This document shows, piece by piece, positions 3,454-59,315 of a stretch of 64,000 nt of DNA. Origin of the DNA: Deltaproteobacteria bacterium (GTDB lineage Bacteria; Desulfobacterota; Desulfobaccia; Desulfobaccales; 0-14-0-80-60-11). The notes beneath the pieces were generated by a model that did not search any database, had not been told where the DNA came from, and saw nothing but the letters and a program-made list of their open reading frames with translations. The stretch covers positions 20,002 to 84,001 of the forward strand of contig JAKAKP010000059.1 in the NCBI GenBank assembly GCA_021813445.1, given 5' to 3'. The position numbers were made by a program, and so were the translations under genes. Each line of letters starts with the position of its first letter. Positions within the stretch are counted from its first letter, which is position 1.

Positions 3454-3809
3454 GGCAGCTGCACGACCTGGCAAGGCAGCGGCGGCGCCATCCCGAATTT
3501 GTCCACCGCTAACTTTTCCAGCCGGGAGATGGAGGTCAGGTTGGAGAGCTCGATCCGGAGCTTGCGATTCAACTCCAGATATTGCTTTTGGGTCTCCTGG
3601 GCCTGGGATATCTGGTAATTCAGATTGGTCTGTTGGAGATTGGCCCAGGCCCAAACCAGGGAGGATATGATGAAGCCGACGGCAACCAGCACCAGGACCG
3701 TCACTCCCGCTTTCCCCCATTGGGAGGGTTGGGAGACCGCCACCTTGCGGTTCCGGGAGGCAAAAAGCTGCTCCACACTGCTTAACCGGAGACTGACGTT
3801 GCTGGGCAT
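3450..3809 (-). CDS. ftsL: Cell division protein FtsL
   Basis: Small bitopic protein (one TM, then coiled coil ...NRKLRIELSNLTSISRLEKLA...) between rsmH and ftsI. Exact start is uncertain. Confidence 0.7.
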   Translation of the reverse strand: MPSNVSLRLSSVEQLFASRNRKVAVSQPSQWGKAGVTVLVLVAVGFIISSLVWAWANLQQTNLNYQISQAQETQKQYLELNRKLRIELSNLTSISRLEKLAVDKFGMAPPLPCQVVQLP

Positions 3810-3821
3810 ACCATTTCTCCT

Positions 3822-4712
3822 TTAATTCTCCACCTTTTCAGCCACGCGCAGTTTGGCGCTCCGAGCCCGGGGGTTGCGGCGTACTTCCTCGACCGTGGGG
3901 ATCAGAGGTTTCCTGGTCAGGCGGCGCATCAGCCCGGCTTTTTCCCAGGCCAACAACCGCTGTTTGACCAGCCGGTCTTCCAGGGAGTGGTAGGAGATCA
4001 CCACCAGACGCCCTCCCGGCTCCAGCCAGGCCGGCGCCTCTCCCAAAAAGACGGCCAGTTCTTCTATTTCCCGGTTCACCGCAATCCTCAAGGCCTGGAA
4101 GACCCGGGTGGCGGGATGTCGCTCCCCCCGCCGCCGCCCGGGTCCCTGGGCCTGCTGAACAAGTGTTACCAACTGCTGGGTAAACCGGAAAGGTTGCTGC
4201 CGCCGGGCTGCTACCACCAGGCGGGCGAAACGCCGGGCGCGCGGCTCTTCGCCATATTCCTTAAAGATCTTTTCCAGGGCGGCCGGAGTGGCGGAGTTGA
4301 GAAGGTCCGCCGCCGTCTTCCCCGGCCTGAGGGGATCGAACCGCATGTCCAGAGGCTCATCGCCCTGGAAACTGAAACCGCGGCCGGAGCGCTGCAGTTG
4401 ATGCAGCGACAGCCCCAGGTCCAGCACGATGCCGGCCACTGCCGGCACCCCTTCTTCCTTAAGTATCTCCCCCAATCGGGCATAAGAGCTATGAAACAGA
4501 TGAAATCTGGAGGTGTAGGGGGCCAGCCTGGCCGCCGCGGTTTCCAGGACCACCGGGTCCTTATCCAGTCCCCACAACCGCCCGTCAGGCGCGCAACGTT
4601 CCAGGATGGCCGCGGCATGCCCCCCTTCACCCACGGTGCCATCCACGTACACGCGAGCTGGCCGGCAATTGAGGCCCACCAACACCTCCTCTACCATCAC
4701 CGGTTCATGCAC
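3822..4712 (-). CDS. rsmH: 16S rRNA (cytosine1402-N4)-methyltransferase RsmH/MraW
   Basis: HEPVMVEEVL...YVDGTVGEGGHA SAM-binding signature; dcw position after mraZ. Confidence 0.95.
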   Translation of the reverse strand: MHEPVMVEEVLVGLNCRPARVYVDGTVGEGGHAAAILERCAPDGRLWGLDKDPVVLETAAARLAPYTSRFHLFHSSYARLGEILKEEGVPAVAGIVLDLGLSLHQLQRSGRGFSFQGDEPLDMRFDPLRPGKTAADLLNSATPAALEKIFKEYGEEPRARRFARLVVAARRQQPFRFTQQLVTLVQQAQGPGRRRGERHPATRVFQALRIAVNREIEELAVFLGEAPAWLEPGGRLVVISYHSLEDRLVKQRLLAWEKAGLMRRLTRKPLIPTVEEVRRNPRARSAKLRVAEKVEN

Positions 4713-4729: not shown

Positions 4730-5164
4730 CTAAATCAGTAATTCGTGGAGTACCTCTTCGTTAATCGCAGATTCGAGCTGCTTCCGATGGGCTTCATAAG
4801 TGGAGCGGTCCCAGATTTCAAAACCGCGGATCATCCCCACCAAAGCCACCTCCCGGGACAGCTTGGCGTAATCCCGGAGATAAGGGCCGATTAAAATCCG
4901 TCCCTGGCGGTCCAAAGGACATTCCTGGACGCCGGAGATGAGAAACCGCTGCACCGCCCGCACTTCTTTGCGCAAGGTGGATTGCTCCGCCAACTTGGCT
5001 TCGACCTTCTGCCATTCGGATTGCGGGAAAGCGAGAATGTAGCCGTCGTAATTGGTGAGGACGAGGACGCGGTCCTGGCGTTCCTGCAGGATTTCCCGGT
5101 AACGGGGGGAAATACTGACCCTGCCTTTGTTATCCAGAAGGTGAAAATAGCTACCGGTGAACAC
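4730..5164 (-). CDS. mraZ: Transcriptional regulator MraZ
   Basis: MFTGSYFHLLDNKGRVSISPRYREIL..., duplicated SpoVT/AbrB-like halves, first gene of the dcw cluster. Confidence 0.95.
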   Translation of the reverse strand: MFTGSYFHLLDNKGRVSISPRYREILQERQDRVLVLTNYDGYILAFPQSEWQKVEAKLAEQSTLRKEVRAVQRFLISGVQECPLDRQGRILIGPYLRDYAKLSREVALVGMIRGFEIWDRSTYEAHRKQLESAINEEVLHELLI

Positions 5165-5220
5165 TGCCCCCTACCTCTCTCCACTCCATGCTACCGGTGA
5201 GGTATCCGACCCTACAAGGC

Positions 5221-5246
5221 CCCACTCAATCCCACTTTTTCCCACT
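5221..5246 (-). promoter_or_regulatory. Putative MraZ operator: three GTGGG direct repeats at exact 10-bp spacing
   Basis: Plus-strand cccac at 5221, 5231 and 5241, which is GTGGGA/GTGGGA/GTGGGG on the gene strand. It lies about 55-80 nt upstream of the mraZ ATG and resembles the TGGGN repeat operator described for E. coli MraZ. Confidence 0.6.
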
Positions 5247-5253
5247 TGCAATC

Positions 5254-5281
5254 AAAATACGCCCTTTTCTATGTATGTCAA
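5254..5281 (-). promoter_or_regulatory. Candidate sigma-70 promoter of the dcw operon (TTGACA-N16-TATTTT)
   Basis: On the minus strand, TTGACA (5281-5276) and TATTTT (5259-5254), immediately upstream of the MraZ boxes. Sequence match only. Confidence 0.4.
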
Positions 5282-5373
5282 GAAAAAAGAGCAAAAAAAG
5301 ATTAAAAGAAAAATTTCACAAATATTCGGGAAGTCTTGATCAATTCAAGGTGCGGAAGCCGTGAAGGGTAATT

Positions 5374-5832
5374 TTATTTGGAGAGGTTACGGTATTCCAG
5401 GTAGGATTGCAGAATGAGGACCGCGGCCACCTGATCCACTACCCGGCGGCGGCGCCGGCGGCTCAGGTCCGCTTGCAGCAAGACCCGCTCCGCTTCCATG
5501 GTGGTGAGCCGTTCATCCCAGGGGGTCACCGGGATCCCCAGGCTATCTCCCAGGGTCCGGGCCAGTTCTAGAACCGCGTCGGCCTGCTTGCCCGGACGGC
5601 CGTCCATATGGCGGGGCAGTCCCACCAGGATTTCCTGGACTTGATACTCCTGGGCCACTTCTCGCAGCCGGGCCAGGTCATGCTCCCGGTTCTGGCGGAT
5701 CAGGACCCCCAATCCCTGGGCGGTGATTCCCAGAGGATCGCTCACCGCTAGGCCGATGCGTTTCTCGCCCACATCCAGGGCGAGGATGCGGACTTCCCGG
5801 CCCCGTGTTTGTTCGGTATCGGTAGGGGACAT
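5374..5832 (-). CDS. ruvX: Holliday junction resolvase-like / pre-16S rRNA nuclease RuvX (YqgF)
   Basis: RILALDVGEKRIGLAVSD...GLPRHMDG...DERLTT, typical YqgF family signature and size. Confidence 0.9.
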   Translation of the reverse strand: MSPTDTEQTRGREVRILALDVGEKRIGLAVSDPLGITAQGLGVLIRQNREHDLARLREVAQEYQVQEILVGLPRHMDGRPGKQADAVLELARTLGDSLGIPVTPWDERLTTMEAERVLLQADLSRRRRRRVVDQVAAVLILQSYLEYRNLSK

Positions 5833-5974
5833 ACTTCCTTCAGGTATGGGGAATAAATCTTTTTCCTATGGCCTTAGTTTAATCCAAATCCATCCAATAA
5901 GCTCCACCTGTTTCCTGAAGTTCTCGGCAAATTCCAGGGGAATCCGGAGGGCCGCCAGGTGTTCTGCTCTCCTC

Positions 5975-8900
5975 TTAGACAAATTTAAAGTTCTTCTCTT
6001 TGAAGAGCTTCAAGCAGGCGTCCACCACCTGGGGATCAAAGAGGACGCCCCGCTTCTTGGAGATTTCCTCCAAGGCCGCGTCTACCCCCAGAGACGGCCG
6101 GTAAGGCCGGTGGGAAGCCATGGCCTCCACTTCGTCCGCCACCCCCAAAATCCTGGCTTCCAACAGAATCTCCTCACCCCGCAAACCGTCGGGGTAACCG
6201 GAGCCATCCATTCTTTCGTGATGTTGCCGGACGATCTGCGCCACCGGCCAGGGAAATTCGATGGGCTGCAAGATATCGTATCCTTTTTGGGAATGGGTTT
6301 TAACTATGGCAAACTCCGTATCGGACAGCTTACCCGGCCGGTTGAGGATTTCTGCAGGTACATAGATTTTTCCCAGGTCGTGGAGACTTCCGGCGATCCA
6401 AACCGCTTTCTTCTGTTCTTTGGAAAGGGCCAGTTCTTTGGCAATGGCCAGGGCCAGCCGGGTCACCCGGCGTTGATGTCCGGCGGTATACGGGTCCCTG
6501 ATTTCCACGGTCAGGGCCATGGCCTGGACGATTCCTCCCATGATCTTCTCCAACCGGCTCAGGCTTTGGCGCAGGTTCTCTTCCGCCTGCCTGTGTGCGG
6601 TGATGTCTTGGATCAAGGGCAGGTAGCAAAGGGGGGTTCCGGCCGCGTCCTTGATCAGGCGCGCCGACAGCCGGACCCAGACCGTGCTGCCATTCTTGCG
6701 GAGGTAACGTTTCTCCATGGTGTATTGCTCGATTTTGCCCGCGGCCAGACGCTGCGCCAGTTTCACGTCCTGGGCCACATCGTCGGGATGGGTAATGTCC
6801 ATAAAAGTGCGGGCCAAGAGTTCTTTCTTGGGATAACCGGTAATCCGGGACAACTCGGCATTGACCTGCTGAAAGCGAAAATCCAGACCCACTAGAGCCG
6901 CGCCGATGGGGGACTGGTCAAAGGTGCGGCGAAACTTCTCCTCACTGAGCCGCAGGGCTTCTTCCGCCTGCTTGCGGGCGGTGATGTCACACAAGGTTCC
7001 GCTGATATGGGTGATCTTGCCGCTGGCATCGCAGAATATCTGACCTAAATTCTGGATCCAACGAATCTCCCCGTCCTTTCTGCGAATCCGGTACTCCCGG
7101 ATATACGACTTATCAGTCTTCAGACCATTAATAAATTTACGTTTCGCTCCTTCCAGGTCCTCCGGCAGGATCAGTTCCTGCCATTTTAGCTTCCGTGAGT
7201 CAAAGTCTGCCTTGCTATAGCCGGTTATGGTTTCAATTTTATTATCAAAGAAATCAATACTCCAATCAGCATATCCTTTGAAGACCACCGCGGGGATTTG
7301 ATTGACCAGCAAGCGGTACTTCTCTTCGCTCTCCCGCAAAAACTCCTCCGCCTGTTTGCGTTCGGTGATGTCGCTATCCGCTCCCCGGTATCCCAGGATA
7401 TTGCCCGCGGTATCCTGTACGGGAACCCCGCTGGTGGATAACCATATGGTTTTCCCATCTTTCCGCTGGTTCCGATTCACGAAATCCCGGAAGGGCTGCT
7501 TGGCCTCGATTATTGCAAAGGCTGCGGCCTTGAGCTCTTCCCGTTCCTCCGGGAGAAAGAAATCATAAAAATGTTTGTCCAGCACTTCCCCTGGCGTATA
7601 GCCCAACAATTTCTCCACCACCGGACTGGAGTAAGTGTATTTTCCCTCACGGTTCAATTCCCAAATCCATTCCACCGCATTTTCCATAATATTCCTAAAC
7701 CGTTGCTCGTTCTCCTTAAGTGCTTCCTCCGTCTGTTTCCTGGCGGTGATGTCGGTGACCATCCCCAGAGAGCCGGCATACCGCCCCTCTTTATCGAACA
7801 CGGGGCTGGAAGTCATTATCACCCACAAATTCCTGCCCTCTTTATGGCGGAGCTTAACATCGAGATGCTCTCTATCGCCTTGCTGGAGGTGCTCGATGAT
7901 GTGACTGCTAAGCTTCTCAAACCATTCCTGGTCAATGAACTTGGTTATCGGCTCGCCGATCATCTCCTCCAGGGAATAACCCAACATTTCCGTCATGCGG
8001 TTATTGGCGAAGGTCACCCTATTTCCCGCGTCCGTGATCCAGATGCCTTCCCACGCGGTTTCGACGATTCGCCGATAGAGTTCGTCCCTTTGCCGCAGCG
8101 CCTCTTCCGTTTGTTTCCGCTTGGATATGTCCCGGAAGGTGATGACCGTTCCTAAAATACGGCCGTCCTGGACGATGGGATTTCTGCCGACCCTCGCCGG
8201 GAAGCCCGTGCCGTCTTTGCGCCAAAAAAAATCATCTTCAAAAGAACAATAAATTCCCTCACTTAGCATTTTCGCGGCGGGGCACTCAGGCGCGGGGTAG
8301 GGACTGCCGTCGGGTTTGGTGTGGTGACAGATACTGTGACCGTGCCGGCCGAGCAGTTCTGCCACTCCATAACCCAGCATCTGCGCAGCCGCGGGGTTTA
8401 CAAAGGTAATGTTGCCCTCGAGGTCCAGTCCCATTATCCCTTCCAAGGTCGAAGATAAGATGAACTCATGGTGCTGGCGCAGTTGGGTCACCTTCCATTC
8501 GGCCCTTTGCCGCATCAAGACTGCCACCATGGCTTCGGCCATGGCCTCCATGTCTTCTTGATGTTGCCTATCATAACCGCCCGGCCGATTGGATAGACCC
8601 ACCATGCCCAGGGTCTGGTCCGCCAGTTTTAAAGGTACGCCCAGGAAGGAAGTGACAGGGGGATAATGGGCCGGAGGTTCGAGCCAATCAGGATGAGCGG
8701 CCGGGTCGTTTAAAATCAGACTCTCACCTCTCTGGAGGACCTGGCTGGAGATACCTTGCGCCTCCCAATCTTGACCCACGGGGGCAGCTGTGGTCCGTGC
8801 CGACTCCGCGGCGGACCGGCCTGGCATATTGGTGGCTATGGTCTGGCACTGGCCCGCGGGATTATGCTGGCAGATGAACCCGAATTTGCTGCCGGTCAAT

Positions 8901-28687: not shown

Positions 28688-30280
28688 TTGTCTTCACAGT
28701 CTCCTAGATCGAAGCCGATTGAGCCAAGGTTATCTATGGCCAGAGGAGCCGATGAAAAAAGCACCGGGATCGATTGGAGGTCGAGGGTATTCGATTCCCT
28801 ATCATTGCCCGCCCTGATCTTGGAGGCGAACCGGGTGGTTCTTGATGCGAATAAGAGCTTTTTGATGCAATACGGCATTAGTAAAGATGGGATTATCGGC
28901 CAGACCTGCCATGAATTCTTCTACCAGTCTGAAGATCCCTGTCCATATGAAACCTGCCCTCTTTCCAAAGTGCTGAAAGAAAAGACCGGACAGACGATCC
29001 TTAGATGCGTCAAGATTCCAGGCAGCAAAGAAAAATGGGAGGACCGAATCTTCTCGCCCATCCTGGATGATGCCGGCAAGGTTCAGTATATCATCGAAAA
29101 AATTCGAGACGTCACTCATATCAAGAGGCTGGAAAGAGAGCTTTCCGGAATCAAGGTATTTATGGAGAAGTTTGTCCAAAGCTCGATGAGCGCTATCGTG
29201 GCCGCTGACCGGAGAGGCAGGATCCTGCTGATGAACCCGGCTGCAGAAGAGCTCACCGGTTATACCTTCCCGGAGGCCCGGAGACGGGTCACGGTTCGAG
29301 ACCTTTACCCGCCGGGCCAGGCGAAAGAGATCATGGCAAAACTCAGGAGCGAAGCTTTTGGCGGAAAAGGCAGGTTACCGTGCAGCCAAACCATCCTGGT
29401 AAACGCCCAAGGGGAAGAGATCCCCGTGGAGTTAACCGCCGCCATAATCTATGAGGGTGAAAAAGAAGTGGCCACCATGGGCATCTTCAACGACCTCAGG
29501 GAGAAAATCGCTCAGGAGGAGAAGATTAAAGAGGTTTTGATGAGAGCGGCCAAGGCCGAGAAAATGGCTTCATTGGGTCAACTTGCCGCTGGAGTCGCCC
29601 ATGAGATCAATAACCCTTTAACTGGCATCCTTCTTTATGGGGGCCTGCTTTTGGAAGATTTACGCAGCGATCATCCCTGGCATCAGGATTTGCAGTCTAT
29701 CATTGATGATGCCAATCAATGCCGCAATATTGTCAAAAGCCTCCTTGCTTATAGCCGCCAGACCAGCGCCAATAAAGAGATCATAGACCTTAATGATTTG
29801 GTGGAGCAAAGCTTGAGCCTTATTCGGGATCAGAGTCTGTTTATCAATATCGAGGTAGTTAAAAAGCTGTCTGATGAAAAGATGCTGATCAGAGTGGACC
29901 GGAGCCAGCTCAATCAGGTGATTATTAATTTAGTCATCAATGCTGTTGACGCCATGGAACGAAAAGGAACCTTGACCCTCAAGACTTATTGGCATCTCCG
30001 GAAGAAGAAGGGGGCGGGAAAGAAAGAGGCGGCAGGTTTCGCTTACCTGGAAGTTGCCGATACCGGCTGTGGCATATCTGCAGAAAATCTTTCCCGGATA
30101 TTTGACCCTTTCTTCACGACCAAAGAACTGGGAAAGGGGACCGGCTTAGGTCTAAGCACCGCTTACGGCATTATCCATGAAAATGGCGGCACTATCTGGG
30201 TAAAAGAAACCAGTCCAAAGGGGAGTACCTTCATAGTGGAACTTCCCCTTTGCCAGGATGCAAACGGACATGAACTTTAG
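28688..30280 (+). CDS. PAS-PAS sensor histidine kinase (complete HisKA + HATPase_c)
   Basis: Cys-rich first PAS (GQTCHEFFYQSEDPCPYETCP). H-box GVAHEINNPLTGI, N-box VIINLVINAVDA, G1 DTGCGIS, G2 GKGTGLGLS. Start is uncertain (TTG 28688 or ATG 28736). Confidence 0.85.
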   Translation: MSSQSPRSKPIEPRLSMARGADEKSTGIDWRSRVFDSLSLPALILEANRVVLDANKSFLMQYGISKDGIIGQTCHEFFYQSEDPCPYETCPLSKVLKEKTGQTILRCVKIPGSKEKWEDRIFSPILDDAGKVQYIIEKIRDVTHIKRLERELSGIKVFMEKFVQSSMSAIVAADRRGRILLMNPAAEELTGYTFPEARRRVTVRDLYPPGQAKEIMAKLRSEAFGGKGRLPCSQTILVNAQGEEIPVELTAAIIYEGEKEVATMGIFNDLREKIAQEEKIKEVLMRAAKAEKMASLGQLAAGVAHEINNPLTGILLYGGLLLEDLRSDHPWHQDLQSIIDDANQCRNIVKSLLAYSRQTSANKEIIDLNDLVEQSLSLIRDQSLFINIEVVKKLSDEKMLIRVDRSQLNQVIINLVINAVDAMERKGTLTLKTYWHLRKKKGAGKKEAAGFAYLEVADTGCGISAENLSRIFDPFFTTKELGKGTGLGLSTAYGIIHENGGTIWVKETSPKGSTFIVELPLCQDANGHEL

Positions 30281-31619
30281 CAAACGGTCGTACAGCAATC
30301 AAGAAATCGGGCCGGGAAACCTGGTGCAGAAAATGGCGTTAATAGCCCATTCCTCACCCTCCATTCTGGTCATCGATGATGAAGAACATGTGCGGCAAGG
30401 CTGCCGCAAGGTACTCGTCCGGGATGGATATGAGGTGACCATCGCTGAATCCGGCGAAATCGGCCTCAGCCTTATTGAGCACCGGCATTTTGACATCATT
30501 CTTTTAGACCTGATGATGCCGAGCCTTTCCGGGTTCGATGTCCTGGCCCTGGTCAAGGCGCTGCATCCTGACACCATCATCATTGTCATCAGCGGTTACG
30601 CCACCTTTGAAAATTCCGTAGAAGTCATGAAACGGGGAGCCTTTGATTTCATCCCCAAACCTTTCTCTCCCGAACAATTACGCCTCCTTACCAGAAAAGC
30701 CATAGAGTATCTGAGAACCATGCAAGATATTGCCGATGAAAAGTCGCGGATGCGCGCGCTCATTAATCGGCTGACTGACGGGGTTATGGCCACTGATGCC
30801 GCCAAACGGATATTGCTGGCAAATCCGGCATTTTTGCGACTGGCCGGCTCCCGGGAAGTGCGAATTGTCGGCTGCCAAGTGGGCGAAGTCATCCAAAATA
30901 CCCATTTGGAAGAGATGATAGATCGGGCGCTGGCTTTGACCGGAACTGAACTGGCGGAACTGGTGGAAGAAATATGTCTTGACTCCGAGGCGGGACAGCC
31001 GCAGACAATTATAAGTGCCCGCTGTATTCCTTATATTGACCGGGCTGGCCGTAACATCGGCACCATCACGGTGCTCCATGACATCACGGCTTTGAAGCGC
31101 CTGGACCGCATCAAGTCAGAATTCGTCGCCATGGTCTCCCACGAGATAAGAAGTCCGCTGAATTCGGTCCTGGCCCAGATGAAAATCATCCTGGACGGCC
31201 TGGCTGGCGAGGTCACCCCGAAGCAACAGGAAATATTGAGCCGGGCCTCGGCCAAGGTCAATAGCCTGATAGCCCTCTCTTCAGAACTCCTGGACCTGGC
31301 CCGGATTGAGTCCGGTCTGATCAGCCAGGAAAGAGAACAACTCAACCTTGCCAATATCCTGGAGGATCAGGTGGCTTTTCATAATCCGGCGGCCCAAGCC
31401 AAGGGGATTTCCCTGGTGCTGGAGCCTTTGCCAAGACTTGAGCCGGTATTTGCCGACCGGGGCACCATGGAAGAGGTGTTCTCCAACCTCATCGCTAACG
31501 CCATCAACTATACGCCCGAGGGCGGCAGGGTGACCCTTTCCGCCGCCATGGAGAGCGGTTACCTCCGGGCCTCTGTGGCCGATAATGGCATCGGCATGGC
31601 CCCCGAAGACCTGGGCCGC
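30258..31619 (+). pseudogene. Hybrid response-regulator/PAS/histidine kinase truncated within the ATPase domain (fused in frame to the phage lysozyme)
   Basis: REC (ILVIDDEEH...ILLDLMMPSLSGF...FIPKPF), PAS, H-box VSHEIRSPLNSV, N-box NLIANAINYTPEGG, G1 DNGIGMAPEDLGR. The expected F-box and G2 (GxGLGL) are missing, and the reading frame continues into a lysozyme domain. Confidence 0.7.
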
Positions 31620-32075
31620 ATGCAGGAAATCATCCTGGCCTCGGCCCAAGAGTATCAATGGCCGCCGAAGATCATTGCCGGGATTATCAGCAGGGAATCC
31701 CGCTTTGGGCTGCTTCTGGACGGTGAGGGCAAGGGCGATGCCGGGCACGGGCACGGCCTGATGCAGATCGACGACCGGAGCTTCGGCGGCTGGCTGGCGG
31801 CAAACGACTGGCAGGACCCGGCCGTCAACATCCAAATGGGCGTCAAAATCCTCACTGACAAATATAACTACCTGGCCGGCCGCGGTCTCCTGGACGGCCT
31901 CAGCGATACGCAAGCCCAGCAGGCCGCGGTCGCGGCTTACAACTGCGGCGAGGGGAACGTCGCCAAGGTGCTCCAGGCCGGGGACGATATTGACAGCCGC
32001 ACCGCGGGCCGGAATTATTCGGCGGACGTCTTGGCCCGGGCCGAGCAATTCAGGGAGGTCTTCGCCGGGACATGA
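31620..32075 (+). CDS. Endolysin, goose-type lysozyme / lytic transglycosylase (GH23-like)
   Basis: IIAGIISRESRFG...GDAGHGHGLMQIDDRS...AAYNCGEGNV resembles the g-type lysozyme/SLT catalytic region. The own ATG at 31620 lies inside the fused ORF 30258-32075. Confidence 0.8.
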   Translation: MQEIILASAQEYQWPPKIIAGIISRESRFGLLLDGEGKGDAGHGHGLMQIDDRSFGGWLAANDWQDPAVNIQMGVKILTDKYNYLAGRGLLDGLSDTQAQQAAVAAYNCGEGNVAKVLQAGDDIDSRTAGRNYSADVLARAEQFREVFAGT

Positions 32076-47063: not shown

Positions 47064-50000
47064 ATGGGCAAAACCTTCAATCTTTCCGTGGTCATCGGCG
47101 CCGCCTTAAGCGGTACTTTCAAGAGTACCATTGGCGGCGCCCTGGGCCAGGTGAAAGGGCTGGGCACGGCCATCCAGCGCCTGGAGTCCGGCCGGGCGGA
47201 TATCGACCGATTCCGGGAGTTGAAGACCGGCCTGGTGGCGACCAAATCCGCGCTGGCTGCGGCGCAAACCGAAGCCGGCCGGCTGGCCCGGGAGTTCAAG
47301 GCCGCGGACTTAGAAAGCGCCAGGCTGGGGAAAGACCTGGCGGCCGCCAAGGAGCGGCTGGCCGCGGTGGCCGCGGAGATGAAGGGGGCCAAGCGGCCGG
47401 GCGAAGAGCTGAAGCAGGCCTACGCCGCGGCCAAGGCCGAAGTGAAATCCCTGGGAGAGGCCCAAAGGCAGGCGGCCCGGCAGGCCTCCGCCCTGGGAGA
47501 GAGTTTTAGCGCGGCCCGGGCGAAGGTGGGCTCTCTCAAGGCCCAGGTGGAGAGCCAAGGTGTGTCCCTGCAGCGCCTGCGCCAACAGATGCAGCAGGCC
47601 GGGATCTCCACCCGGAGTCTGGCCGCGGACCAGGCCAAGCTGGGGGCCGCCCTGGAGCGGGCCCGCAGCGCCCAGGCCAAGCTGGGCGCGGCCCTGGCGG
47701 CCCAGAAGTCGAACCTGGAGAAGCGGGCCCAATACCGGGGGCAGCTCTTTGACGCCGTAGCGATGGGGGCGTCTATTGCCGCCCCCATGAAAGCCGCCAT
47801 TGATTTTGAATCGGCTATGGCCGACGTGGGTAAGGCAGTGAACTTCGAGCAGCCGGACGGCCTGGTCCAGATGGGCCGTACGATCAAGGAAATGGCCCGC
47901 GATATACCGGTAAGTCAAAGTGGATTGGCGAAAATTACGGAGGCTGGTGGGAAATTAGGGATAGATAGCAATATGTTAGAGCAATACACCAAGCTTGTAG
48001 CTATACAGTCTGTCGCCTTCGACATGTCCGCGGAGGAAGCCGGGACCTCAATGGCAAAAATCAGAAATATTTATGACTTGTCCTTGAAAGGTGTCACCCT
48101 GCTGGGCGACGCCATCAACTATCTGGGAGATAAGAGTGCGTCAAACGAAAGAGATATTGTCAATGTTATGACCCGGATTGGCGGAACCGCCAGGATGATT
48201 GGAATGGCGGCAGAGAAGGCTGCTGCTTGGGGCAGCACTATGGTGTCGTTAGGCCGCGCTCCAGAAGTAGCCGCCACGGGTCTCAATGCACTTATGATAA
48301 AGCTTTATAATGCTGACAAGGGCAATAAAAAATTTCAGAACGGCCTGATTAAAGCGGGAATCAGTGCCAAAAAATTAAAGCAGGCCATGCTGAAAGATGC
48401 CAATGGGGCTTTATTGGCATTTTTGGAAACCCTGGCCAAGGTACCCAAAGACAAACAAAGCGGCATCTTAGTTGATCTATTTGGCATGGAATATGCTGAT
48501 GATATAGCGATCCTAATAGGAGGAATCAAAGAACTTAGAAAAGAGCTGGGATACGTGGCCGAAGAATCGAACTATGCCGGGTCTACGCAGAAGGTATTTG
48601 AGGCCCGGAAAAAAACTACAGCCAATTATCTCCAACTCTTAAAGAACCGGGTGGTGGAAGCCGGGATCAACTTCGGAACCGTGTTTCTATCAGGCACTAT
48701 CGCGGTGGCGAGCGGCATCGGCAAATGCACCACGCTCCTGGCGATTCTGGCCGAGAGATTTCCCCTGCTCACGAAAGTGATTGGTGGGACCATCGTTGGC
48801 TTTATCGGCCTCCGGGTGGCCACCATCGGCTTTGGTTATGCCAGCACCTTTGTCATGGGCGGCATCAATACCTTGAAGGTGGCGTTCGCCAGCCTGACAG
48901 CCCGTATTGCTCAAGCCCGTATCGGCATGACCGCTTTCAATGCCACGGCCGGAGGGACGGCCCTGGGTGGCGTGGCCGCCAGGGCCCTGACCCCGGTGCG
49001 GGCGATAGGCAACGCGGTGCTCCATCCGATAACGGCCTTGCGCTCCCTGGGGTCGACCTTGGCCGGGCTGGGGCGGGGCGCGGCCAGGGGTGCCGGGGCC
49101 GGGTTGCGCAGCATCGGGTCGGCGGCCCTGGGAATGGGAAGGTTTTTGCTCAACCCCGTCGGGGCTCTACGTTCCCTGGGCGGGGCGATGCTCGGCTTCG
49201 CCCGGCTGGCGGTGCCCGCGGTGGTGGGCGGCATCCGGGCCATTGGCCTGGCCATCGTCAGCAATCCGGTGGGAGTGGGCCTGGCGGTGATCACCGGGGC
49301 CGCCCTGCTGATCTACAAATACTGGGAACCCGTCAAGTCCTTCTTTGGCGGGTTCTGGCAAGGGTTTAAGGGTGGATTTTCCAGCGTCTTTGGCGGCATA
49401 GGCGCGGCCCTGGCGCCTTTGCAGCCGGTTTTCAACGCCGTGGGGACGGCGGTAAATTGGGTCTGGAACGGCATTAAGAGCCTGGTCGCATGGTTCGGCA
49501 ACCTCCTGGGTCCGGCCAATACCTCCAGCGAAACCCTAAAACAATGCGCCAGCGCCGGCCAGGTCGTAGGTCAGGTTCTCGGCGTGGTGGTGGGCGGCGC
49601 AGTGAAGCTGCTGATTGCGCCTTTTCAGCTGCTCGGCTCGGCCGTGCAGTTTGTCTGGAACCTCTTCAAAGATGGGCCGTATCAGGCCGTGGTTAACGGC
49701 TTTAACCAGGTCAAGGCCTGGCTGGAAAACTTCAGCCTGGCGGATGTGGGCCGCAAAATCATCGGCACCTTGGTGGACGGCATTAAAAGCGTGGGCTCCG
49801 CCGTCAAAAATGCGGTCAAGTCGGCCTTTACCCATGCCGATCCCATGTTCCCTCATTCAGATGCGGCGGAAGGCCCCTTCTCCCGGTTGACGGCCAGCGG
49901 CCGGGCCTTGATGGAGACCTTCGGCGCGGGCATCGAAGCCGCGGGCAGCCGGGCCCTGGTCAATCCTCTGGGCCGCATTTTCGGGGCCGCCCGGCAACTG

Positions 50001-55222: not shown

Positions 55223-56275
55223 ATGCCATTACCACATCCCAATATTACGCCCATTCCGGACAACGAGCCAGATGCCGTCCCGAGCCTGTGGAACGTCCGG
55301 TATTCGGAGATCGATGAGAATTTCCAAAACCATGAGGGCCGGGTGGCGGCGGCCGAGGGCGAGATTGCCGCGGCCCGGGGCGGCGAGGCCAACCTTGATA
55401 CCCGCCTCTCCGGGATGGAATCCAACCTGGAGGGCCTCGACCCGGATATGCAGAACATGGTGGTCAGCTCCCTCATGGGGGTGATCGGCGACCAGGGCGT
55501 CCTCGCCAAGGAACTGGCCCGGGTGGAAGCCGAGCGCATCGCCGAAACGGACCGGATCGAAGCCGACTACGGCAACGATTATCAGGGGGCGCTCCAGTAT
55601 TTTACCCTCAAGCTCCTGGATGACCTGGCCCTGGCCCACAAGGAGATGAAGAAAACCCTGGGCATGCGCTTCCAGGAGGGGCTGATCACCCTGAAAAACC
55701 GCGGGGTGATCTCCGGCTGCACCGTCTCCAAATCGACCACCGCGGCCAGAAACGTCACCTTGGCCTTAGGGAAGTTCTTCCTCAAAGGACGGCCCTATAG
55801 CGTGCAGGAGCTGGTGAATTGCGCCTCGATTCCCAATAACAACTCGGGGTCCGCCGCGACCTGTTATGTGTTTCTCTGGATCGACGCCAACGGCGTCATT
55901 CAGTGCGATTCCACCGACCTGGGCCAGGCCGTGCCGGACAACGGCATCATTCTCTACGAAGTGACCGTGCCGGCCAACAACAACGACATTAACGACCCGA
56001 ACCTGGCTAATGTCACCTTGACCGATCGGCGGCGGCTGGAGGCCAATTGGCCCACCGTGCTGGACGCGCCCAGCTATGCTCTGGTGGCCCTTAATGCCCC
56101 CATCGTGGGAGCGGACTACATCGTTCAGCTCGACCTGGTCAGCTTTACCGGCCCGGCTTCCGGCCTGGACGGGTTTTTGGTGCAGAACCGGCTCGATAAC
56201 GGCTTCAAGGTGTATTTCTCGGGCATGGCTGACGACCTGGTGGTGCGTTACCTGGTAAGCCGGCCCGGCGCTTGA
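55223..56275 (+). CDS. Putative tail fibre protein
   Basis: Position, coiled-coil N-terminus, Asn-rich beta-rich C-terminus. No precise family recognised. Confidence 0.5.
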   Translation: MPLPHPNITPIPDNEPDAVPSLWNVRYSEIDENFQNHEGRVAAAEGEIAAARGGEANLDTRLSGMESNLEGLDPDMQNMVVSSLMGVIGDQGVLAKELARVEAERIAETDRIEADYGNDYQGALQYFTLKLLDDLALAHKEMKKTLGMRFQEGLITLKNRGVISGCTVSKSTTAARNVTLALGKFFLKGRPYSVQELVNCASIPNNNSGSAATCYVFLWIDANGVIQCDSTDLGQAVPDNGIILYEVTVPANNNDINDPNLANVTLTDRRRLEANWPTVLDAPSYALVALNAPIVGADYIVQLDLVSFTGPASGLDGFLVQNRLDNGFKVYFSGMADDLVVRYLVSRPGA

Positions 56276-56298
56276 TCCAACCATAAAGGAGGTTTGAC

Positions 56299-56622
56299 AT
56301 GAGATTGGAAATGATGGGGAGCGGACCCTGTGCGGACTTTGCTATTTCCGGCGCGACCGTTTCGGTCGGAGAGGCGAGCGTGGATTGTGCCGCCATGCAG
56401 AGCGACCATGAGGTAGTGGCGGATATTTGCTCCGACGGCCAGGGGGACTTTGTGGCCGGGGCCGCCGAAGGCAGGGCCTATGTCCTGTCCTGCATCATCC
56501 CCCCGCAGCGCTTCGAGATGGTGCAGGACGGGGAAGATGAGAACGGCCCGATCATGAAGCCGGTGCCCATTCCCCTGAACCCCAGTGAGGTCGTGGTCAA
56601 GGTATGGCCCTATGTCGGGTAG
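56299..56622 (+). CDS. Hypothetical protein (possible fibre accessory/chaperone)
   Basis: 107 aa between the fibre genes. No family recognised. Confidence 0.35.
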   Translation: MRLEMMGSGPCADFAISGATVSVGEASVDCAAMQSDHEVVADICSDGQGDFVAGAAEGRAYVLSCIIPPQRFEMVQDGEDENGPIMKPVPIPLNPSEVVVKVWPYVG

Positions 56623-56670
56623 GGGCGAACTTTAAGACCGATTTTTAGCCAAACTTCAGGAGGAAGAAAA

Positions 56671-57768
56671 ATGCCGACCATTTTTGTGAAAGACAATCTG
56701 CGGGCTGCCATTGAGGCCGCCACGGGCGGGAAGGTTACGGTGCTCTATGACGACAAGGGCTACCCCTCTTACATGATCGTGATCCCCAAGTTCATGTGCG
56801 AGGATATCGACGCCTCCCTGGGTACCGGGGTGTTTCCGGCCTTCATCGTCAACGAGGTCGAAAAGAGCCAGATCTTTGTCGGGCAATATCAGGCCATCGT
56901 CAAGGACTCCCGGGCTGTTTGCCTCCCCGGCGTCGATCCGGCCACCTCGCTGACCTTCGACAATGCCCTGCTCTATTGCAAGAACAAGGGCCAGGGCTGG
57001 CATTTGATGACCAACGCCGAATGGGCCGCCCTGGCCTTTTGGTGCTGGAAGAATGGCTTCCAGCCCCGGGGCAACACGAATTACGGCCGTTCCCATGCCG
57101 CCACCTATGAAACCGGGCGCCGGGTGGACGGCGCCGCTCCCGGCGTGACCGCCGGCACTCCCCGGACTTATGCCGGGTCGGGGCCGGCGAGCTGGCGGCA
57201 CGATAACACCTGGGCCGGCATTGCCGACCTGGTGGGCAACATCTGGGAATGGGTCGGCGGCCTGCGCCTGAATGTCGGCGAAATCCAGGTCCTGCCCAAC
57301 AATGATGCGGCCGACAACACCAAGGATCAGGGGGCCGCCTCCGCTCTCTGGAAGGCCATTCTCGCCGACGGCAGCCTGGTGGCCCCTGGCACGGCCGGAA
57401 CCTGCAAGTACGATTCCGTCAATGCCGGCACCACGGGGCAAGTCGGGGCGCCGCAGCTCGATGACGTGATCGACAACTCCAATGCTCCGGCCTCCGGGGA
57501 TGATGGCTATACCTCTGTGGCCTTTCAATCCCTGGCTGCCGACGCCGGCATCACGCCCCCGGCGTTGCTGAAACGGCTGCTGCTCTTCCCGCATGCTGCT
57601 ACCGGCCTGAACGGAGATATCTGGGTCCGGAACTACGGTGAGCGCATGCCTCTCCGTGGCGGGAACTGGCTCGACGGCGCCGGCGCCGGGCTGTTCCACT
57701 TGTACCTGGGCCGCGAGCGGTCGGGCACGGGCCCGGGCCTCGGGTTCCGCCCCGCTTTTATTTCCTGA
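56671..57768 (+). CDS. DGR target-type receptor-binding protein (Mtd-like, FGE/C-type-lectin fold) with C-terminal variable-region signature
   Basis: FGE/SUMF1-like motifs (GWHLMTNAEWAALAFW, GNIWEWVGG). C-terminus RGGNWLDGAGAGLFHLYLGRERSGTGPGLGFRPAF matches the canonical DGR VR scaffold (RGGSW...G.F...GFR). Followed by avd/RT remnants. Confidence 0.8.
   Translation: MPTIFVKDNLRAAIEAATGGKVTVLYDDKGYPSYMIVIPKFMCEDIDASLGTGVFPAFIVNEVEKSQIFVGQYQAIVKDSRAVCLPGVDPATSLTFDNALLYCKNKGQGWHLMTNAEWAALAFWCWKNGFQPRGNTNYGRSHAATYETGRRVDGAAPGVTAGTPRTYAGSGPASWRHDNTWAGIADLVGNIWEWVGGLRLNVGEIQVLPNNDAADNTKDQGAASALWKAILADGSLVAPGTAGTCKYDSVNAGTTGQVGAPQLDDVIDNSNAPASGDDGYTSVAFQSLAADAGITPPALLKRLLLFPHAATGLNGDIWVRNYGERMPLRGGNWLDGAGAGLFHLYLGRERSGTGPGLGFRPAFIS
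57640..57768 (+). other. Probable DGR variable region (VR) at the 3' end of the target gene
   Basis: Encodes the CLec-fold ligand-binding loop. Adenine-poor by my count (about 8 A in the final 111 nt). Boundaries are approximate. Confidence 0.6.
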
Positions 57769-57834
57769 GAATCTGAAATCTGATCTCTTGATTATCTGAA
57801 TGGCGTAGCGCATCGGAGACAGGGGGATTAAAGA

Positions 57835-58254
57835 ATGTCCGGTCAATTAAAAATCGCCCAGAAATGGGAAGACATGGCCGGATATGCCTACGGTGCGCTG
57901 CGCCAATTCCCGAAGAGCGAGAGGTCACCCTCGGGGCCGAGCTTCGGGATTGCCTTTCTCGGGCTGTCCCTGAACCCTAAAACCCGCATTTTCCCCGCTC
58001 ATCAAGGCATTGACTTTGCTGGCTATCGAACCTGGCCAACCCATAGGCTGCCCAGGAAGCGCAACGTCTTAAAAGCCCGGAGGCGGTTCCGTTTATTGAT
58101 GGAGTCTTATGGCCGGGGCGAGATAACCCTTGACGATGTCCGCCCCTCGGTGGCCAGTTTCCTGGGCTATATGAAGCACTGCTCAAGCTATCGAACGGTC
58201 CAGGAGATTCTTAATGATCTTGTCTTGAAGCGCAATATTGGCGAGGTGAACTGA
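57835..58254 (+). pseudogene. Remnant DGR cassette: avd 5' stub (frameshifted) joined to the 3' end of the reverse transcriptase gene
   Basis: N-terminus MSGQLKIAQKWEDMAGYAYGALRQFPKSER is Avd-like, and the Avd frame continues only in the +1 frame (VTLGAELRDCLSRAVPEP*). The C-terminus ...HQGIDFAGYRTWPTHRLPRKRNVLKARRRFRLLMESYGRGEITLDDVRPSVASFLGYMKH matches the thumb/C-terminus of DGR RTs. The finger/palm (YxDD) region and the TR are absent. Confidence 0.75.
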
Positions 58255-58394
58255 GAAGAAAGCGAGCCAATTTCAACCCCCGGACAACTTAATTACCCTA
58301 CCGATGAGCTTCATCAAGCCCCCAGAAGCTGTCGGTGAATTTTGCCCTTTTTCCGTTTTCGGCCCCTTCATCTCATTCTGCGTGCTAAAATATC

Positions 58395-59315
58395 TCAAAC
58401 TGTCTGCGCGCTTACACTGAGACCTCGTCGTTGTGCCTGCAATCTCCCCTTCACAAACCGGAAGACCGTCCGGTCAGTTCCACCTTGCTTGAGTTTTTTC
58501 AGAAGCAGGTCGTCTTGTAACCATTGCCCCAATTCTGCTTGTCCTTCCCGGGTATCGAGATGATGGATTTTTTCATCCAACCCGGCAAAGGGATGGCACT
58601 TGACCATGTGTTTCAGAAAAAAACTCTCCAAGATGTGGTGGGGTATGAGCCGCAGCGGCTCCGCCTGCTCTTCCGCTTTTGTTTGGCTCCTGGCCTCAGA
58701 GGAGAGATCTTCGATGAGATTGCAGAAGTCAATGTGGCAGGGGCCATAATTGAAGAGATAAAAGCTGGAAATCAGACTTTCCCGCTTCCACATTCTTTTT
58801 AGCTCAGTCATTACTTTTGCACGCTCCGGGCTAAGAAGAAGCGGACGCTGGAAACAAAGGTAATCTTTAAAACACTCTTTCCTGGCATTCTCCTCGAAAG
58901 TACCCTCATTAACCAGATATTCGGGGAAAAGGATGCAGGGCAAAGGCCGGATAGCATAGATACTACACAGGTCGTTTTTTAAAAAGGGGCAGGGTTTCTG
59001 CAACTTCAGAGTCACCATGCGGATCCAGTCTTCCCGCTCATTGCTGAGCAACCCCAAGGAATAGCGGTCCTGGTAAATGGCGGATAATGGCTGGTCCTGG
59101 TGCCGGGCTGCGGCCAGGACATCGAAGATGGTCACCGGCACCTGCAAGTCTTGATTCTTGCATCCGGGCCGCCTGCAGGCTGGGTCACATTGAAACTCTG
59201 AGGCAGTTGCCGCCAGGTCCGCCCGCTGGCGCAGATAGGCAGCAAACCAGGGGCCGGCATCTGCAATTGGAGGAGGGTTGGTTTTCTGGCGCCACCAACG
59301 GGGCAACCTGAACAT
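58395..59315 (-). CDS. YkgJ-family cysteine-cluster (putative Zn/Fe-binding) protein
   Basis: CDPACRRPGCKN... and KPCPFLKNDLCSIYAIRPLPCILFP motifs. Confidence 0.65.
   Translation of the reverse strand: MFRLPRWWRQKTNPPPIADAGPWFAAYLRQRADLAATASEFQCDPACRRPGCKNQDLQVPVTIFDVLAAARHQDQPLSAIYQDRYSLGLLSNEREDWIRMVTLKLQKPCPFLKNDLCSIYAIRPLPCILFPEYLVNEGTFEENARKECFKDYLCFQRPLLLSPERAKVMTELKRMWKRESLISSFYLFNYGPCHIDFCNLIEDLSSEARSQTKAEEQAEPLRLIPHHILESFFLKHMVKCHPFAGLDEKIHHLDTREGQAELGQWLQDDLLLKKLKQGGTDRTVFRFVKGRLQAQRRGLSVSAQTV

Follow-up and report, generated by a model that had tools for sequence, protein, structure and literature searches.

We examined a 64,000-nt stretch of a contig from a Deltaproteobacteria bacterium (JAKAKP010000059.1, positions 20,002 to 84,001; hereafter the window) and focused on the last gene of a tail-fibre module and on the short open reading frame (ORF) that follows it. 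The first is the target gene of a diversity-generating retroelement (DGR), with a variable region (VR) at its 3' end, and it is intact. The second is a chimera in which the beginning of avd, the gene for the DGR accessory protein, runs into the end of a gene for a DGR reverse transcriptase (RT). A template repeat (TR), from which a VR is rewritten, was not found in the window. As it stands, the locus has no catalytic RT, no TR and no complete Avd, each of them a defining feature of a DGR, and we therefore refer to it as a DGR remnant. An earlier reading of this stretch, made without database searches and called here the original prediction, had proposed such a remnant. The features are listed in Table 1, in which L093, a longer copy of the contig L002, is a relative with an intact cassette.

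Table 1. Features of the DGR remnant and of the element that carries it (window coordinates, except for the last line).
Feature	Coordinates	Strand	Remarks
DGR target gene	56671-57768	+	365 aa, intact ORF; TaqVP-family variable protein with C-type-lectin/FGE fold
VR	57646-57758	+	diversified and adenine-depleted; placed by alignment to the TRs of intact relatives
VR 3' boundary	57741-57790	+	GC-rich block CGGGTTCCGCCCCGCTTT, common to relatives' TRs, then VR-specific flank TATTTCCTGAGAATCTGAAATCTGATCTC
Target-avd intergenic spacer	57769-57834	+	66 nt; highly conserved with L002/L093
avd stub	57835-57957	+	first 41 of 112 codons; 1-nt deletion at 57925/57926 (TTC to TC)
Deletion junction	57948-57957	+	GATTGCCTTT; fits the avd register (to 57957) and the RT register (from 57948)
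RT C-terminal remnant	57958-58254	+	98 residues, equivalent to residues 249-346 of the 346-aa L093 RT; palm end and thumb kept
Chimeric ORF	57835-58254	+	139 aa: Avd 1-30, then 11-aa out-of-frame linker, then RT 249-346
Noncoding right prophage end	58255-58416	+	homology stops at ...GCGCGCTTACA, Mu-type CA terminus; minus-strand host genes next
Mu-like prophage late region (lysis, head, tail)	32764-58416	+	left limit uncertain, ~31.6 to 33.0 kb
Apparent host-phage fusion ORF	30270-32075	+	response-regulator/PAS/HisKA kinase, then SLT lytic transglycosylase (aa 455-569)
Intact cassette of L093 (L093 coordinates)	target 5001-6101; avd to 6507; TR 6523-6635; RT 6839-7879		RT of 346 aa

The target gene closes the tail-fibre module, and its protein ends in RGGNWLDGAGAGLFHLYLGRERSGTGPGLGFRPAFIS. 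The Pfam family FGE-sulfatase matched the protein with an E-value of 2.4e-6, phrog_2889 covered residues 2-364 (E 2.5e-147), and PDB entry 5VF4 aligned along nearly the full length, with target residues 5-364 against its residues 8-384 (E 2.8e-104). 5VF4 is TaqVP, a variable protein with a C-type-lectin (CLec) fold from a DGR in a Thermus aquaticus prophage, and the CLec fold is common to DGR variable proteins (PMC6328139). These matches bear out the FGE/C-type-lectin fold that had been predicted for the last gene of the fibre module. The protein had also been called Mtd-like, a description that holds for fold, role and gene position but not for the family. In a phmmer search against all PDB chains at E<=1, no Mtd chain was returned, and the only matches were 5VF4, EgtB-IV and a serpin. 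On these alignments, we consider the target to be homologous to TaqVP-type variable proteins (PHROG 2889) across the whole protein, beyond the VR, and its likeness to Mtd to be limited to the shared CLec fold and gene position. At least 2590 homologues of the target were found at E<=1e-60, and a scan of genome contigs with the target protein gave only distant relatives, of at most 54% identity, in metagenome-assembled genomes (MAGs) of Aliarcobacter, Geobacter and Tannerella. Outside the VR, the branch leading to the window carries 32 synonymous and 13 non-synonymous changes, and we conclude that this part of the gene has been under purifying selection for most of the branch time.

The VR had been described as adenine-poor. 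Ahead of the conserved 3' block, a 116-nt stretch of the VR contains 8 adenines (6.9%), compared with 18% in the remaining gene, and only 0.08% of the 116-nt windows across the 64 kb are equally poor in adenine. The only stretches that match the VR in this respect are 49013-49290, within the tape-measure gene, and 1596-1720; VR-like homology was detected in neither. We then made an in-register alignment of the window VR and of the VRs and TRs from L093, L091, L092 and L001, the relatives being drawn from IMG/VR and JGI metagenomes. The window VR is 76% identical to the L093 TR and 72% identical to the L091 TR (3807-3917). When compared with the L093 TR, it differs at 19 TR adenines, nearly all of them in AAC codons, and at 10 other bases. 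Between the VR and the TR of a relative there are 11-13 differences at adenine sites and 3-6 elsewhere. The number of adenines is 24-26 in the relatives' TRs, 12-13 in the relatives' VRs and 8 in the window VR. In addition, the members of the protein cluster at 90% identity are near-identical except for their last ~40 residues. Because the differences are biased towards adenine sites and the variation in the cluster is confined to these last ~40 residues, the alignments lead us to conclude that the window VR is genuinely DGR-written sequence, now without its template. The gene has a C-terminal VR within a C-type-lectin fold, as is expected of a DGR target, on the evidence of the 5VF4 match and of the variation derived from AAC codons. 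The comparison with related prophages had been proposed in the original prediction, and it returned differences mainly at TR adenines.

The 3' end of the VR has two parts. The GC-rich block is shared with the relatives' TRs, and the flank behind it is conserved with the relatives' VR flanks and not with their TR flanks. By its position, this boundary resembles an initiation of mutagenic homing (IMH) site, and we regard it as a putative one. The 66-nt spacer 3' of the VR does not fold better than shuffled sequences (DNA fold, z = +1.26), and an Rfam scan of 55-60 kb at E<=1 gave no match.

To define what is missing, we compared the locus with L093, which is 86% identical to the window at the nucleotide level. 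Pfam bAvd covers the length of its Avd (E 1.3e-23). In its RT, RVT_1 spans residues 72-272, motif 4 is present as GALTSQ, and the catalytic FMDD occupies residues 220-223. With blastn, window and L093 align in two arms: a left arm of window 56000-57957 with L093 4328-6292, and a right arm of window 57948-58353 with L093 7573-7978. The arms overlap by 10 nt in the window, at the deletion junction, where the microhomology is CTTT (CTTT/GCCTTT) by a strict count and 9 of 10 bases by a loose one. In L093 coordinates the deletion measures 1290 nt, and the missing segment takes in avd codons 42-112, all of the TR, the spacer and codons 1-248 of the RT. Both GALTSQ and FMDD fall within this segment, which agrees with the predicted loss of the palm with its YxDD motif.

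On either side of the junction, the two halves of the chimera were identified by profile searches, which the original prediction had suggested as a way to map the breakpoint. Residues 1-30 matched phrog_3206, 'Avd protein of DGR' (E 2e-4), and residues 42-133 matched phrog_1423, a DGR-type RT (E 9.6e-29). Pfam bAvd reached an E-value of 0.048 on the chimera (14.6 bits, below the cut-off of 40), and Pfam RVT_1 had no match in the window ORF 57835-58254. The RT remnant also aligns to residues 241-288 of the BPP-1 RT, bRT (8UB7). When one T is restored at the 1-nt deletion, the stub reads MSGQLKIAQKWEDMAGYAYGALRQFPKSERFTLGAELRDCL and agrees with L093 Avd in 39 of its 41 residues. Uncorrected, the Avd reading resumes in the +1 frame (VTLGAELRDCL...) and meets a stop 18 codons on. 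Thus the original prediction was accurate in nearly all its details: the gap of 66 nt between the target gene and the next ORF is exact, this ORF starts like Avd, the predicted +1 frame shift with a stop about 18 codons later corresponds to the 1-nt deletion relative to intact relatives, and of the RT only the C-terminus is left, with 98 residues where about 95 had been claimed. In a functional DGR, Avd is complete and the RT has an intact palm with motif 4 ([I/L]GxxxSQ) and YxDD; here Avd is reduced to 41 of 112 codons with an internal 1-nt deletion, and the RT has neither motif. The 1-nt deletion in avd and the 1290-nt deletion together leave the 139-aa chimera open. The chimeric ORF is most likely a non-functional by-product.

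A functional DGR also has a TR. We searched the window, together with 3.5 kb of extra flank from the same strain, with the VR as query (blastn, word size 7) and found no VR-like repeat, only chance matches of at most 26 bits. As a control, the TR of a heterologous relative was detected against the window VR at an E-value of 1.8e-17 under the same settings, showing that the method would have detected a TR in the window. The absence of a TR from this self-comparison is as predicted. We also wrote out the degenerate pattern required of any cognate TR, in which A stays A and C, G and T become M, R and W, and obtained 0 matches in the IMG/VR viral contigs. The GTDB-representative genomes likewise gave 0 matches, but the pattern did not retrieve even the window VR from that set, and this second result has no bearing on a TR acting in trans. 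The closest known TRs differ from the window VR at 8-15 non-adenine positions.

Taken together, these results make it very probable that the locus is the remnant of a phage DGR that had the usual order target(VR)-avd-TR-RT and was collapsed by a single 1290-nt deletion. In the ancestor, a complex of RT and Avd would have copied TR RNA into adenine-mutagenised cDNA, and this cDNA would have overwritten the VR at the 3' end of the final gene in the tail-fibre module. One deletion between the short direct repeats, probably by illegitimate recombination or replication slippage, would then have joined avd codon 41 to RT codon 249, taking with it 71 avd codons, the whole TR, the spacer from which the priming RNA came, and motifs 1-5 of the RT, FMDD among them. 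By chance, the separate loss of 1 nt within the stub of avd would bring this stub into frame with the RT tail. With no template, catalytic RT or Avd, mutagenic retrohoming is impossible from the window locus. The VR would now change by ordinary mutation only and would keep the last diversified sequence that it received.

We found the same allele in other assemblies. The identical 365-aa target is present on 19 contigs and the identical 139-aa chimera on 18, and their sources are the NCBI MAG GCA_027404775.1, the NCBI assembly GCA_016276955.3, ENA k141 assemblies and Logan (at least 4 SRA runs). Eight copies were fetched, and all are 100% identical to the window over 6-17 kb, VR DNA included. 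One contig, L021 of GCA_016276955.3, breaks off at window position 57834, exactly where the avd stub begins, and we see no obvious cause for this. For the age of the collapse, we turned to the substitutions in the RT remnant. Relative to L093, its synonymous divergence (dS) is 0.25 and its ratio of non-synonymous to synonymous divergence (dN/dS) is 0.165, indicating that most of the divergence accrued under constraint. With L091 used to polarise the changes, 4 synonymous and 5 non-synonymous ones fall on the window branch, against 7 and 2 on the branch of the intact L093. These counts fit a relaxation of constraint after a fairly recent deletion and are far too small to date it, and we abandoned dating the collapse in this way. 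The claim that the locus is a dated snapshot is accordingly not upheld, given the complete identity of the copies and the small counts.

DGR decay recurs among the relatives of this locus. Our screen took in all fetched loci with a target homologue and at least 2 kb of downstream sequence, ~19 loci in total. A set of avd, TR and full-length RT is present at about 15 distinct loci, including L128 and L129/L130, the latter from a Desulfobacterales MAG. The DGR is collapsed at 4 of the ~19 loci (the window, L127, L102/L011 and L131/L132), with four different architectures. L127 (Logan SRR22746132, 11170-11855; target 89% identical) is without the segments equivalent to L093 6303-7240 and 7443-7683, and its TR and FMDD are gone. 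At the nucleotide level L127 is 92% identical to the intact L093 and 85% identical to the window, and being closer to the intact relative, it must have lost its DGR independently. The left breakpoints of the window and L127 in avd are ~10 nt apart, a proximity that may be coincidence, with two events only. No hairpin or motif was found that would explain the clustered breakpoints of these two loci. A terminator-like hairpin at 57930-57948, by the junction, was considered as a structural hot spot and rejected, as its equivalents in four intact relatives are no better than shuffled sequences (z 0.1-0.6).

The other two collapses are different. At L102/L011 (L102 6041-7700), a D12 adenine methyltransferase gene stands in place of avd, the TR and the RT N-terminus, and there is a frameshift at YMDD. 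At L131/L132 (L131 7966-8462), avd and the TR are kept, and the RT ends after ~35-50 residues and is fused to a methyltransferase C-terminus. L102 and L131 are more distant relatives, and the decayed DGRs of both are linked to a D12 adenine methyltransferase gene. We also observed that GCA_016276955.3 holds two different TaqVP-type prophages (L132 and L021), both with dead DGRs.

We weighed several other explanations for the locus. The VR/TR repeat in DGR loci can confuse assemblers, and the missing 1.3 kb could in that case be an artefact, a collapsed or chimeric contig over an intact locus. The junction, however, joins avd codon 41 to RT codon 249 and not VR to TR, where repeats collapse, and it is accompanied by the independent 1-nt frameshift. 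Moreover, the junction is common to 18 contigs from different pipelines (NCBI MAG, ENA k141 and Logan) and several runs. The chance of an artefact is therefore close to nil; the same junction in 18 separately assembled contigs establishes that the deletion allele is real. A different possibility is that the locus is still diversified in trans, with another DGR in the genome supplying RT, Avd and a cognate TR to the VR as a remote target. We think this very unlikely. The VR 3' end and its flank are indeed conserved with those of active relatives, and the assembly GCA_016276955.3 contains a related prophage with avd and a TR (L132). Yet blastn gave no match between the window VR and the TR of L131/L132, a locus whose RT is itself truncated. 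Neither the 64 kb with its flank nor IMG/VR yielded a cognate TR, the nearest known TRs mismatch the window VR at the 8-15 non-adenine positions given above, and the same target protein, VR included, occurs on 19 contigs, with identical VR DNA in every copy that was fetched. The original prediction that the specificity of the VR is frozen stands in cis, since template, catalytic RT and Avd are absent from the locus.

The remaining alternative is that selection favoured the chimeric ORF, Avd(1-30)-RT(249-346), or else the deletion as such. The outcome could be a new small protein, or a domesticated, particle-forming element could have been deliberately 'locked' into a favourable receptor-binding variant. 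In favour of this, the 139-aa frame of the chimera is open and follows the ribosome-binding site of avd, and target change outside the VR is mostly synonymous. Moreover, L127, L102 and L131 each lost the DGR core independently and kept an intact target, and about 10 nt separate the left avd breakpoints of the window and L127. Nevertheless, a random frameshift restores the frame 1/3 of the time, and the non-synonymous share in the RT remnant is higher on the window branch (5:4) than on the intact branch (2:7), as under relaxation. The chimera has no homologous cluster beyond the window clone, the four collapses differ in architecture, and a hot spot is explained by no hairpin or motif. We therefore judge selection of this kind to be most improbable. 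A more general form of the idea is that losing the avd-TR-RT core while keeping the diversified target is a recurrent, possibly selected 'lock-in' that occurs when TaqVP-type DGR prophages become resident or domesticated, with a deletion-prone spot in 5' avd contributing; this we regard as unlikely. Some observations do count against a DGR collapsed to a functionless and frozen remnant. The RT remnant is still an open frame with a dN/dS of 0.165 relative to L093; the deletion may therefore be recent, and a role for the chimeric ORF is conceivable. All recovered copies belong to one clone and are 100% identical, making their identical VRs weak evidence for long-term stasis. In addition, the freezing of the VR holds in cis only, that is, for the 64-kb window and the 3.5 kb of flank. 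We conclude that collapse by one deletion accounts best for the locus.

The DGR remnant is located at the extreme right end of a Mu-like element. The late genes of this element include Portal_Mu, Phage_Mu_F, Phage_Mu_Gp36, Phage_Mu_Gp37, sheath, tube, tape-measure and P2-type baseplate genes, and they are the late genes of a Mu-type phage, whereas the early region of a complete prophage is missing. In the relative L122, early genes (a 603-aa ORF, a MuB-like AAA_22 ATPase, Gam and GemA) precede the lysis and terminase genes. The early proteins of L122 had no tblastn match anywhere in the window, and no homologue of a transposase, MuB, Gam, GemA or repressor was found in it. On its upstream side, the late region borders on two-component and metabolic genes of the host. 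Because only late genes are present and the early region is gone, the gene content identifies the element as a prophage remnant that has undergone at least two large deletions, among them the one that collapsed the DGR. The loss of the DGR would then belong to a wider erosion of this Mu-like prophage, and with this gene content the remnant probably cannot make infectious progeny. The original prediction had spoken of tropism switching; the VR was diversified, but with the early region lost 'tropism' is probably moot.

At its right end, the element is delimited by homology to L127 (window 58059-58417 with L127 11497-11855), and the host flanks differ among L093, L127 and L129, which lie at different chromosomal sites. 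We searched for an inverted copy of the right terminus (TGTAAGCGCGC) as a mark of the left phage end and found only the right end itself. Terminase relatives were no help in placing the left boundary, as the SLT, Exo_endo_phos, spanin and CHAP genes are not shared. In the apparent host-phage fusion ORF, the HATPase_c domain of a hybrid histidine kinase stops at profile position 56 of 111 and the SLT domain comes directly after, and we take this domain order to mean that the ORF is probably the scar of a deletion on the left side of the prophage remnant. On the other side, the last ~7 codons and the stop of a minus-strand host gene with a CxxCxxCC domain (58395-59315) overlap the inferred right end of the phage (58395-58416). 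The phage insertion may have replaced the original C-terminus of this host gene.

Degraded DGRs are a known kind of object, and DGR surveys acknowledge prophage remnants (PMC5758913, PMC6199706). What we describe is ordinary gene decay in a defective prophage and involves no new mechanism. New are the resolution, with both deletion ends, the microhomology and an intact sibling, and the hint of frequent loss in this protein family. The end state can be viewed against the intact sibling, and it indicates that one microhomology-mediated deletion suffices to kill a DGR while sparing the diversified receptor-binding-type gene. Since DGR surveys start from an RT and a TR/VR pair, decayed cassettes go uncounted. 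Orphan "SUMF1/FGE-like" tail genes of prophages with A-poor C-termini become recognisable as former DGR targets, and the fossil frequency of 4 in ~19 loci gives a first rough idea of the loss of phage DGRs after integration.

Finally, we compared the locus with known systems. In classical Mu, host range is set by the invertible G segment and not by a DGR. The element resembles defective Mu-like prophages in its Mu-type late genes, in the varied chromosomal sites of its relatives and in the right terminus CA, and it differs from a complete Mu-like prophage in having no transposase, MuB, Gam, GemA or repressor region. With the TaqVP DGR of the Thermus aquaticus prophage, it shares full-length homology of the target, a C-terminal VR in a CLec fold ending in ...G.RPAF, and a prophage location. 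In contrast to that system, the avd-TR-RT core is deleted here, and the host is a mesophile-type bacterium of ~60% GC and not Thermus. The BPP-1 DGR (mtd-avd-TR-brt) has the order target(VR)-avd-TR-RT of the intact relatives, and, as in them, it closes the tail-fibre module of a temperate phage. The adenine-specific VR/TR differences and the alignment of the RT remnant to bRT 241-288 are further points of likeness. Unlike BPP-1, the window element has a target that no Mtd chain matched at E<=1, has no TR or catalytic RT, and has a truncated Avd. Among cyanobacteria, degraded DGRs have been described as an RT-only remnant in Anabaena sp. 90 and as all3226 of Nostoc PCC 7120, which has remnant TR-VR homology and no RT (PMC7517822). 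There, as in the window, part of a cassette is left and the variable protein outlives the diversification machinery. The cyanobacterial targets are cellular and their breakpoints are unresolved, whereas the target described here is a phage tail-fibre gene, both ends of the deletion are mapped against an intact sibling, and three more collapses, each independent, are present in the protein family.

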